Part shown: in pieces, positions 49,471-51,723 of the stretch
Position numbering within the stretch: the first letter of the stretch is position 1
Layout: every line of letters starts with the position of its first letter
Virus record (IMG/VR): IMGVR_UViG_3300012209_000005
Location: 51,416 to 115,415 of that record
DNA length: 64,000 bases
Strand: one strand, 5' to 3'
Source: a virus
Notes under the pieces: model-generated
Databases searched by the model: none
What the model was told of the DNA's origin: nothing
The model's input: the letters and a program-made list of their open reading frames with translations, nothing else
Made by a program: the position numbers and the translations under genes

Positions 49471-49526
49471 TCCGCAAACGCTGTATGTGTGCCCTACCGG
49501 GCAGGTAGGTGGAGATTGAGACTGCC

Positions 49527-49745
49527 ATGAAAAACAGCAAGTTCAAGCCTCTCGCATCCCCCGTTTACCAGCCCAAGCCGCTCACCTATGAGCAGGCCCG
49601 CACGTGCTCCTCGGCTAGTGCCTGGCTGAAGTCGCAAGGCTTCTCCGCTATTGACGGTTCGCCCGTCACGGCGGCAACCAGGACCCGCCGGCCGCGGCTC
49701 GCGCGCATCGCCCGTGATTCGTCCAAGCTGACGCTGGATATCTGA
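49527..49745 (+). CDS. small basic protein (module 1)
   Basis: GGAG RBS-like sequence, ATG, enclosed by stem. Confidence 0.55.
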   Translation: MKNSKFKPLASPVYQPKPLTYEQARTCSSASAWLKSQGFSAIDGSPVTAATRTRRPRLARIARDSSKLTLDI

Positions 49746-49868
49746 TGAAGGGGCAACCCCGGAAGGACACGATTGTGAAGGCAATCGACGCGACGCACCC
49801 GATCCTGGGGATCCCCTGGATCTCCCCCCCGACGCGAACCCCCTGCCCGGCCGACAGTCAGAAGTGAC

Positions 49869-49976
49869 ATGCACTACGAGAATTGCGGCAACCCCGCGAC
49901 TCACGATCATCACCTCTGGTGCGCCGGCGGAACATGGAAGGAATGCGCCGGCATTCCGTCCCGCACGGAAGACTGA
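49869..49976 (+). CDS. 35-aa Cys/His peptide MHYENCGNPATHDHHLWCAGG... (module 1)
   Basis: C..H..H.W..C.G metal-binding pattern; ends just before right arm. Confidence 0.45.
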   Translation: MHYENCGNPATHDHHLWCAGGTWKECAGIPSRTED

Positions 49977-50312
49977 TCACGCACCACAAAACACCACTGC
50001 CTGCCCGGTAGGGCACACATACGGCAACGCGATACGCCCGCTGGCGGTTCGGAGATTACCTCTGCGCCACTGGCAACGCTAAACGCTTCACAGATACTGC
50101 GGGATGGATGTGCTCCCGGATGACCTTAACGGTCTGGGGCAACTAAGGCCCCTATAAGATCCGCACCTCAGATTACGAGGGTAAAAGTCGCATGCTCTGT
50201 GTCGGCTGCAGGTTGCATGCTAGCCCGGAAAATACCGGTGCCGGCGGGCGTATCGCGTATCACCTGCTATACCGTATGTCCTTTTAGCCGGCCGGGGATC
50301 GGGGGAGTCGTC

Positions 50313-50471
50313 ATGGACGCTCTCATGAATTCCCAGGTCGTTATCGCGCTTGTCACCCATCATGACGGCGCCACGGAAACACGCATACAGAACAAAGCGC
50401 ACATTTTGAGCACGCTGGAATCCGATGTGATCAGCGTGTCTTTCCCCGTGCTCTTGCACAACGCCAACTAG
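50313..50471 (+). CDS. 52-aa protein (module 3)
   Basis: GGGGGAG RBS; ORF fills the loop of the stem. Confidence 0.55.
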   Translation: MDALMNSQVVIALVTHHDGATETRIQNKAHILSTLESDVISVSFPVLLHNAN

Positions 50472-50563
50472 CCGCATAAGTTCCGGCCGGCTAAATGGGC
50501 ATACGGGTAGCAGGCCCATTACCGCGTGTCCTTTTAGCCGGCCAGCCGGATTGTGAGTATCAC

Positions 50564-50692
50564 ATGACCAATCCTGTCTGCGGGCGTTGCCGGGAGCGTC
50601 TCACCCGTCACTGCCCGGAATGTAGCGCATGCCCGGGGCAGGAATGCCCCTACTGGTGTGCGCTCAATGACAACCCAGTCCGGAGGAGGTGA
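50564..50692 (+). CDS. 42-aa Cys-rich peptide (module 4)
   Basis: CGRC..HCPECSACPG.ECPYWC. Confidence 0.5.
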   Translation: MTNPVCGRCRERLTRHCPECSACPGQECPYWCALNDNPVRRR

Positions 50693-50697
50693 ACACT

Positions 50698-50868
50698 ATG
50701 ATCACCGTGACCCGCCGTTATTTCAACGGGAACACCTACGTCACCGTTCACAGCAAGACACGCCGCAACCCGTGGCGCGCCATCGGTACCAACCAGGGTA
50801 CCCGCGGCATTCGAGCGGGACTCAAAGTCAACCTGTACCCGTCGGCGAACTGGCGTTACAGCCACTGA
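50698..50868 (+). CDS. 56-aa basic protein MITVTRRYFNG... (module 4)
   Basis: Strong RBS GGAGGAGGTG; stop just before right arm. Confidence 0.65.
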   Translation: MITVTRRYFNGNTYVTVHSKTRRNPWRAIGTNQGTRGIRAGLKVNLYPSANWRYSH

Positions 50869-50950
50869 TACCAGCCGGCCGGCTAAATGGGCACGCGGTA
50901 ATGGCATTCACCCTAGCGCGTCACCTTGCGCCGGCGGAAACGAGGCATCA

Positions 50951-51145
50951 ATGGCTCTTAACACCAGCGTCAAGATCGTGCAAGTTTCGCTAAGCGCTAA
51001 CGACGCTGCCACCGTGCAAGCGTTGCTAGACCACGTTCGCACTTTCCCCGGCTGGGAAAGCGACAACGCGAACGTGACGGAAGACACGCGGCGAGGCGGG
51101 TACACCGTCCGTTACGCCGCAGCATCAATTCACCCCCCCGAGTAG
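50951..51145 (+). CDS. 64-aa protein (module 5)
   Basis: GAGG RBS; ORF fills the loop of the stem. Confidence 0.6.
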   Translation: MALNTSVKIVQVSLSANDAATVQALLDHVRTFPGWESDNANVTEDTRRGGYTVRYAAASIHPPE

Positions 51146-51723
51146 ACACTCTCCATGTCTGCCGGCACATGGTGGCACGCTAGGGAAACGGGAAAGTCAT
51201 CACTGGGTAACTCCCCTAACAGTCGGATAGGCCGCTTCGTTACAGCGCACATGCCTATGAGCCTGATGAGGCTATAAACACTGTGCTCTGGCTTTCCTGT
51301 CATGCGATATGGTCACCGCCTGGTAAGTAGAGGCATCCGGAACATAGGCGGTAGGCCGGCTCTCACCATATCGCTATCGATCATGCCCAATGGTCCTAGT
51401 CAGTTCTTGACGCAAGGATAGGGATCTAGTCCTAAGCACCATCGCCATTAACTCATGATCGTGTGTTTACGGTGCGGCACGGCGAATACGCAAGCCGCGC
51501 ACTTCCGGCACGTCAAAATGCTAAACCAGTTACGGTACGGCTAACCGGCGTGTCTTACGTGCGTGCATTAATCTCCGCGCCCATCCGCAAGCGCAAGGAA
51601 AGGAAAAGCACATGTGGCCTATCATCCCGCTGATCATTCCCGCCATCGAGTTCGTTCCCGGCTGGATATGGACGATTATCCAGTGCCCCTGGATCGAATA
51701 CCTACTGTGAGGAGAAAGAACAC

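Follow-up and report, generated by a model that had tools for sequence, protein, structure and literature searches.

Tandem stem-closed gene modules in an uncultured 115-kb phage genome: a candidate RNA-processing or stabilising architecture

The RNase III sites of the T7 early transcript are local hairpins that lie between genes. The same enzyme binds leader-trailer stalks, the duplexes on either side of 16S and 23S ribosomal RNA (rRNA); the review describing them also lists an RNase III structure from Mycobacterium tuberculosis and a transcriptome study of RNase III in Streptomyces coelicolor (PMC8708148). Pairing between the two ends of one message is known from single host genes: in the Bacillus subtilis hbs mRNA a helix between the 5' and 3' untranslated regions (UTRs) modulates nuclease access (PMC5737220), and the ends of Staphylococcus aureus icaR pair as well (PMC3868564). 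Engineered paired termini stabilise RNAs in Escherichia coli (PMC1635301), and Correia repeats, which are miniature inverted-repeat transposable elements (MITEs), are RNase III targets when transcribed (PMC2649163). Here we describe an array of small units, each closed by its own long-range inverted repeat, at 49480-51461 of a 64,000-nucleotide stretch of viral DNA (hereafter the window; positions 51,416 to 115,415 of IMG/VR record IMGVR_UViG_3300012209_000005). The window is the final 64 kb of this 115,415-bp record, which has a GC content of ~66% and is estimated to be 93% complete; coordinates are window positions unless stated otherwise.

The array contains five abutting units, M1-M5, four with small genes and one non-coding, each lying between paired flanks, followed by three shorter candidates, M6-M8. 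The closing stems of M1-M5 are 19-34 bp long and 82-95% complementary, their arms pairing across 232-546 nt, and the spacers from M1 through to M8 measure 1, 4, 1, 6, 2, 3 and 3 nt. A custom scan of the whole 115 kb looked for ungapped stems with a span of 50-800 nt (scored as G-C 3, A-U 2, G-U 1, mismatch -5); read as plus-strand RNA, its top six stems all fall within 49480-51185 with scores of 51-74, against a background maximum of 49 elsewhere (55 when the minus strand is read). Among 150 dinucleotide shuffles of 49400-51600 the mean was 0.01 stems scoring at least 45, whereas the real sequence has six scoring at least 50. M1-M5 appear as closed domains in the minimum-free-energy fold of 49470-51470, and a partition-function calculation over 49300-51700 gives them mean pair probabilities of 0.88-1.0. 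The M1-M5 array is real and statistically extreme, far beyond chance. M6-M8 are weak and not separable from chance: their closing stems score below the scan background, their folds have z values of about -2 on both strands, and the pair probabilities in the wider fold are 0.01, 0.82 and 0.99, respectively. The original prediction had named eight modules tiling with 1-6 nt between them, the first with a 23-bp perfect core; the spacing and the core are as claimed and a repeat search recovers the M1-M5 arm pairs where they had been placed, whereas M6-M8 sink below background and M6 is lost in the wider fold, leaving five solid modules and three doubtful ones.

The ungapped stems together hold 155 Watson-Crick pairs, 12 G.U pairs, four A.C mismatches and three other mismatches. 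In M1 the repeat arms 49480-49508/49997-50025 (29 nt, 93%) form 27 Watson-Crick and two G.U pairs around the perfect core, and the stem has an energy of -66.3 kcal/mol as plus-strand RNA versus -57.9 as minus-strand RNA. The M2 stem consists of 18 Watson-Crick pairs and one G.U pair (fold z = -4.4; pair probability 1.0); its interior has no convincing open reading frame (ORF) and matches no Rfam family. M3 has repeat arms at 50272-50295/50483-50506 (24 nt, 92%; ~35 nt counting a bulge) and energies of -60.2 versus -52.7 kcal/mol on the plus and minus strands, and the M5 stem comprises 23 Watson-Crick, two G.U, two A.C and one U.U. The array has three non-transition mismatches, each of them U.U and each near the middle of a stem, in M3, M4 and M5 (5' arm positions 50282, 50532 and 50926). 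Summed over M1-M6, the stems amount to -291.8 kcal/mol as plus-strand RNA versus -264.7 as minus-strand RNA; M1, M2, M3 and M6 are clearly more stable on the plus strand and M5 marginally so. The wobble and energy bias is modest and points to the coding (plus) strand.

The arms themselves show that pairing rather than sequence is kept. Each module has its own arm sequence, with M3 and M4 as the exception, and no copies of any arm were found elsewhere in the 115-kb genome. M3 and M4 have a 24-nt core common to both arms at 92% identity; it differs at two adjacent pairs in both arms, which are U-A/A-U in M3 and C-G/G-C in M4. Beyond the core the outer extensions (CCTGCTAT/GTAGCAGG in M3, CCAT/ATGG in M4) are unlike in sequence and yet each is self-complementary. 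Because of these compensatory swaps and differing extensions, each of the two modules pairs best with itself: pairing within the module reaches 92% in M3 and 88% in M4, compared with 82% for the M3 3' arm against the M4 5' arm and 85% for the M3 5' arm against the M4 3' arm. An identical G.U pair and an identical U.U mismatch are kept in both. As the arms are otherwise private to each module, it is complementarity and not a motif that is conserved, with the helices maintained by compensatory change.

The loops of M1, M3, M4 and M5 hold plus-strand ORFs of 35-72 amino acids with Shine-Dalgarno-like sequences, so the predicted fit of the ORFs and their ribosome-binding sites (RBSs) into the loops is borne out. 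In all four, 12-20 nt separate the 5' arm from the first ATG, and the last stop codon is followed by the 3' arm after 8-20 nt. The GC content at third codon positions (GC3) is 0.70-0.85 in these ORFs versus a local GC content of 0.59. The first ORF of M1 (M1a) has a 72-amino-acid homologue (P0002) on a JGI contig of 1136 bp; the two proteins are 64% identical and share long invariant blocks, which indicates that M1a is a real gene. Searches of phages with M1a and the M5 ORF by tblastn, and a metagenome scan with the M1a alignment, gave zero matches. M4a has a 43%-identical stretch inside an 88-amino-acid ORF of a relative (locus L011, 6375-6464), at the C-terminus of that ORF; M4a corresponds to its C-terminal third and may be a shortened version of it. 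M4b gave only weak repeat-like matches in the protein library, and a search with the M5 ORF returned only its own 90% cluster. The coordinates are collected in Table 1.

Table 1. Coordinates of the stem-closed modules, their enclosed ORFs and a gene farther downstream (window positions).
Feature	Position	Strand	Details
M1 5' arm	49480-49512	+	Pairs with 49994-50025; pair probability 0.98
M1 3' arm	49994-50025	+	Partner of 49480-49512
M1 ORF a	49527-49745	+	72 amino acids; GGAG 11 nt upstream; GC3 0.78
M1 ORF b	49745 onward	+	40 amino acids, or 30 from GTG 49775; GC3 0.85; weak RBS
M1 ORF c	49869-49976	+	35 amino acids; GC3 0.72; weak RBS
M2 non-coding unit	50027-50258	+	19-bp stem 50027-50045/50240-50258, 95%
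M3 5' arm	50263-50297	+	Pairs with 50481-50514
M3 3' arm	50481-50514	+	Partner of 50263-50297; core common to M4 3' arm
M3 ORF	50313-50471	+	52 amino acids; GGGGGAG 6 nt before ATG; GC3 0.74
M4 5' arm	50516-50549	+	Pairs with 50871-50904, 34 nt, 88%; pair probability 0.96
M4 3' arm	50871-50904	+	Partner of 50516-50549
M4 ORF a	50564-50692	+	42 amino acids; eight Cys, zinc-ribbon-like
M4 ORF b	50698-50868	+	56 amino acids; GGAGGAGG RBS; GC3 0.79
M5 5' arm	50911-50938	+	Pairs with 51158-51185, 28 nt, 82%; pair probability 0.88
M5 3' arm	51158-51185	+	Partner of 50911-50938
M5 ORF	50951-51145	+	64 amino acids; ACGAGG RBS; GC3 0.71
M6-M8 short non-coding hairpin domains (weak)	51188-51461	+	Closing stems 12, 10 and 8 bp
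Anti-restriction-type gene	58786-59772		Within the rightward block headed by the array

Among the described systems, the array resembles the rRNA stalks in having long-range flanking duplexes and several tandem units per precursor. M1-M5 each have such a duplex of about two helical turns (~20 bp or more), mostly Watson-Crick, whereas M6-M8 (8-12 bp) fall short of ~20 bp. The phage cargo differs, consisting of small mRNAs (ORFs of 35-72 amino acids with RBSs) and short non-coding RNAs in units of 232-546 nt, and their cleavage is a prediction. Like the T7 early transcript, the array would be a polycistronic, first-gene phage transcript divided into messages by double-stranded RNA (dsRNA) elements. 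T7 has strong local hairpins between cistrons, however, and here the strong helices join the 5' and 3' flanks of one unit; the local hairpins at the junctions reach -2 to -36 kcal/mol versus -41 to -66 for the M1-M5 stems, and because they are weak the array does not follow the T7 pattern. In hbs (PMC5737220) and icaR (PMC3868564), as in silico in M1, M3, M4 and M5, the two ends of one message pair, affecting nuclease access or translation in the host genes; those are single genes with ~14-bp helices over regulatory sites, while the array has five abutting units with helices of 19-34 bp and leaves the RBS free. The engineered paired-termini RNAs (PMC1635301) share the flanking inverted repeats that act as a dsRNA clamp, and the enclosed RNA is abundant and stable there; they differ in being synthetic single units with antisense cargo. 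Arrays of integron attC sites and MITEs likewise consist of small cargo units bounded by inverted repeats, but the module ends here have no common motif of the core-site kind (R''/R', GTTRRRY type) and no target-site duplications, and only M3 and M4 share arms, with differing interiors. Phage operons with a long-range stem around each gene were not found described in full-text searches of the literature, in line with the original statement that the architecture was not recognised as a described system. The array would be a new version of the known RNase III stalks and UTR clamps.

A 102-amino-acid gene just downstream of the array (52159-52467) has 23 homologues at 54-74% identity, and a scan of genome contigs with this family gave zero matches. 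The relative loci L011-L018, with 28-55% identity in the 102-amino-acid protein, were inspected upstream of the homologue of this gene and showed no arrays apart from one module in L013. In that distantly related locus (55% identity) a bipartite long-range stem of ~50 bp (4237-4290/4942-5005) encloses two plus-strand ORFs (4354-4719 and 4716-4952) with an RBS, 2.7 kb upstream of the homologue. The single L013 module and the lack of arrays in the other loci suggest that the layout recurs in the wider lineage and is not conserved gene by gene. No stem array was seen in the first 50 kb of the Actinomycetia phage DSL-LC01, a distant terminase relative, and an arm 16-mer had only two AT-rich chance matches in IMG/VR, without modules.

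In all likelihood the array serves to process or stabilise RNA, an architecture in which one long transcript is probably cut or folded into separate end-clamped messages. Specifically, we propose, with a probability of about 0.5, that leader-trailer helices surround each message and are likely substrates of host RNase III. A rightward transcript would start in the 2.2-kb non-coding region upstream and run through 49480-51185, with the M1, M3, M4 and M5 cistrons and the M2 non-coding RNA each bracketed by its own helix, which would turn each unit into an independent folding domain. Since the helices are long, near-perfect dsRNA, they would most likely be cut by host RNase III; the stem lengths in M1-M5 are in the size range expected of its substrates. 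Cutting would free the separate units with their 5' and 3' ends still paired in the inner half of the stem, and the paired ends would protect the messages from 5'-end-dependent and 3' exonucleases while the RBS beyond the stem remains free. All three steps, co-transcription into a single RNA, RNase III cleavage and stabilisation, are inferred. A common precursor is indicated only indirectly, by the shared strand, the 1-6-nt spacers and the lack of any plus-strand promoter or terminator consensus within the array. If the stems work in this way, phage messages would have an rRNA-style transcript organisation of a kind that our searches did not find described for them, and every early gene would reach the cell as a message complete in itself and protected from nucleases. 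This would explain how very small early genes are usefully expressed despite active 5' and 3' exonucleases in hosts, provide a simple rule by which early operons and genuine micro-genes could be recognised in the genomes of uncultured phages, and supply a natural model for making synthetic operons more stable. It is conceivable, as a more tentative extension, that in several phage lineages the first operon is assembled from autonomous 'RNA cassettes'; each would have its own helix, be excised by RNase III and be left with clamped ends, perhaps with closed-loop translation, the arms serving also as seams for the exchange of cassettes between phages. The window would then be one actinophage-type case of a general way of building mRNAs.

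Several points weigh against the proposal. The evidence consists of sequence and in silico folds, and the covariation comes from one internal pair of modules (M3/M4). The strand asymmetry is modest, with p ~0.04 for the 12:4 ratio of G.U to A.C, which bears out in part the claim of plus-strand G-U compatibility; M4 is slightly more stable as minus-strand RNA and M5 nearly even. No phage-encoded RNase III or protein with a dsRNA-binding domain (dsRBD) was found in the 115-kb record, and the enzyme is therefore assumed to be that of the host, from the general distribution of RNase III in bacteria. A sigma-70 consensus scan found no promoter. Lastly, the M4a homologue in L011 lies in a compact overlapping operon without arms (6201-6467), which implies that the enclosure can be separated from its genes and, over such a distance, is not conserved. 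The proposed RNA-level units, with the likeness to rRNA stalks, nevertheless fit the evidence best on account of the private complementary arms, the M3/M4 compensation, the coding-strand wobble, the loop geometry and the stem lengths. Two further parts of the original prediction gain no support: circularised mini-mRNAs, which we reject as neither RtcB nor an RNA ligase was found in the 115-kb record, and folded single-stranded DNA cassettes, for which there is no shared core site, recombinase or extra copy.

Of the other explanations, the nearest keeps the same RNA helices and leaves them uncut, as clamps or insulators that would keep the folding and translation of one cistron independent of the others, stop RNases that scan or act processively, or aid re-initiation from stop codon to RBS in a 'closed loop'. 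The similar distances of starts and stops from the arms in four of the four coding modules would suit such a role, as would the central U.U in three of the five stems, which is unchanged between M3 and M4 despite the swapped neighbouring pairs. Interruptions such as U.U mismatches can lower RNase III cutting. M1 (29 bp, no true mismatch) and M2 (19 bp), however, are plain dsRNA in which cutting is expected, and we regard uncut clamps as unlikely, although the sequence offers nothing to tell them from cleaved stems. It is less probable still that the arms act in DNA, as the terminal inverted repeats of mobile or recombining cassettes (MITE-like, foldback or integron-like) that were inserted serially. 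M3 and M4 have the same arms around unrelated cargo, as if cargo had been swapped between standard ends, the array has a lower GC content (0.59) than the genome (~0.66) and the armless L011 homologue implies separate histories for arms and genes. The arms are otherwise private, though, with no shared core site, target-site duplications are not seen at the junctions and no further copy of any arm exists in the 115-kb genome; the compensatory changes favour pairing within the module, and the coding-strand wobble bias would not be expected for a double-stranded DNA site. Arms 230-545 bp apart would also be poor candidates for cruciforms in duplex DNA, and the 115-kb record has no match to a tyrosine (PF00589) or serine (PF00239) recombinase. 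An integron or MITE element is rejected for want of a core site, integrase, target duplications or extra copies; a recombination role for the arms stays alive as a secondary feature because of the arm sharing in M3/M4 and the armless L011 homologue.

The window also encodes a TROVE-type protein (38216-40237, minus strand; phrog_850), and the non-coding units (M2, possibly the upstream domain M0 described below, and M6-M8) could in principle be stem-handled small RNAs partnering Ro60/TROVE in the manner of Y RNAs, which are likewise closed by a terminal stem (PMC4201824), with the coding modules reusing the handle. This is very improbable: there is no match to YrlA or any other Rfam family at the gathering score over the window or at E<=10 over 46500-52500, ARAGORN finds no transfer RNA (tRNA) or tRNA-like element, the TROVE gene is ~9 kb away from the array and on the opposite strand and, by inspection, the GNCGAA(N)G motif (PMC4201824) is absent from the 5' end of every module. 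We also reject the idea that M7 and M8 are tRNAs or Y RNAs.

Turning to the genome, the structural genes (portal fusion and terminase) are on the minus strand, up to ~40 kb in the window. The DUF7178 protein is 41-45% identical to proteins of Streptomyces, Mycobacterium and Gordonia phages and the terminase is ~31% identical to those of 114-kb Gordonia phages, and on these matches the uncultured 115-kb phage is treated as an orphan genome of actinobacteriophage type. A blastn search of GenBank phages with 49000-52000 gave zero matches, as did single-protein scans of IMG/VR with the 141-amino-acid gene described below, M1a, DUF7178 and terminase; GenBank phages and IMG/VR appear to hold nothing close to this phage. 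The 2.2 kb at 47300-49480 are a divergent region without convincing coding sequence, and nearly all genes called between 49509 and the record's end are on the plus strand, with a single 112-amino-acid call on the minus strand. By this layout the array is the head of a plus-strand gene block that follows a divergent non-coding region, and 'early' timing of the block is plausible. A contig of 136,996 bp is on record with proteins identical to ones encoded in the window, and the 115-kb record is therefore probably an incomplete or shorter assembly of the same phage.

Other structured elements were seen around the array. The 398 nt at 48998-49395 are non-coding and fold into a single rod-like, closed domain rich in G.U pairs (as plus-strand RNA -163.4 kcal/mol, z -4.1; as minus-strand RNA -145.1, z -3.4), directly followed by a GC hairpin at 49396-49421; tentatively, this domain may be an extra module ('M0') or a structured leader. 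Within 48465-48765 a long imperfect hairpin (48471-48674) adjoins a T-loop-like GGTTCGAATAC at ~48684-48694, with no Rfam or ARAGORN match. Outside the window, at 42400-45500 of the record (C1), six moderate long-range stems (scores 40-49) lie between two large minus-strand genes, at a density well above the genome average, yet they overlap instead of tiling. An AT-rich patch stands out from the 66% GC genome at 47500-47660, where leftward and rightward genes diverge, and it contains promoter-like hexamers that the sigma-70 scan did not call, for example TTGTCC, 17 nt and TAACTT at ~47627-47655. The window has 13 copies of the octamer CAGGTCAC versus 2.95 expected; four of them, on the plus strand (47523, 47613, 48736 and 48790), are clustered in the non-coding DNA that precedes the array, and the octamer could bind a regulator or form part of a phage promoter. 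Immediately after the array a very hydrophobic ORF of 32 amino acids (51612-51710) is followed, within 51612-52149, by a 141-amino-acid protein with a lipoprotein-type signal (LSGC), and both products at the block head are predicted to be membrane-directed.

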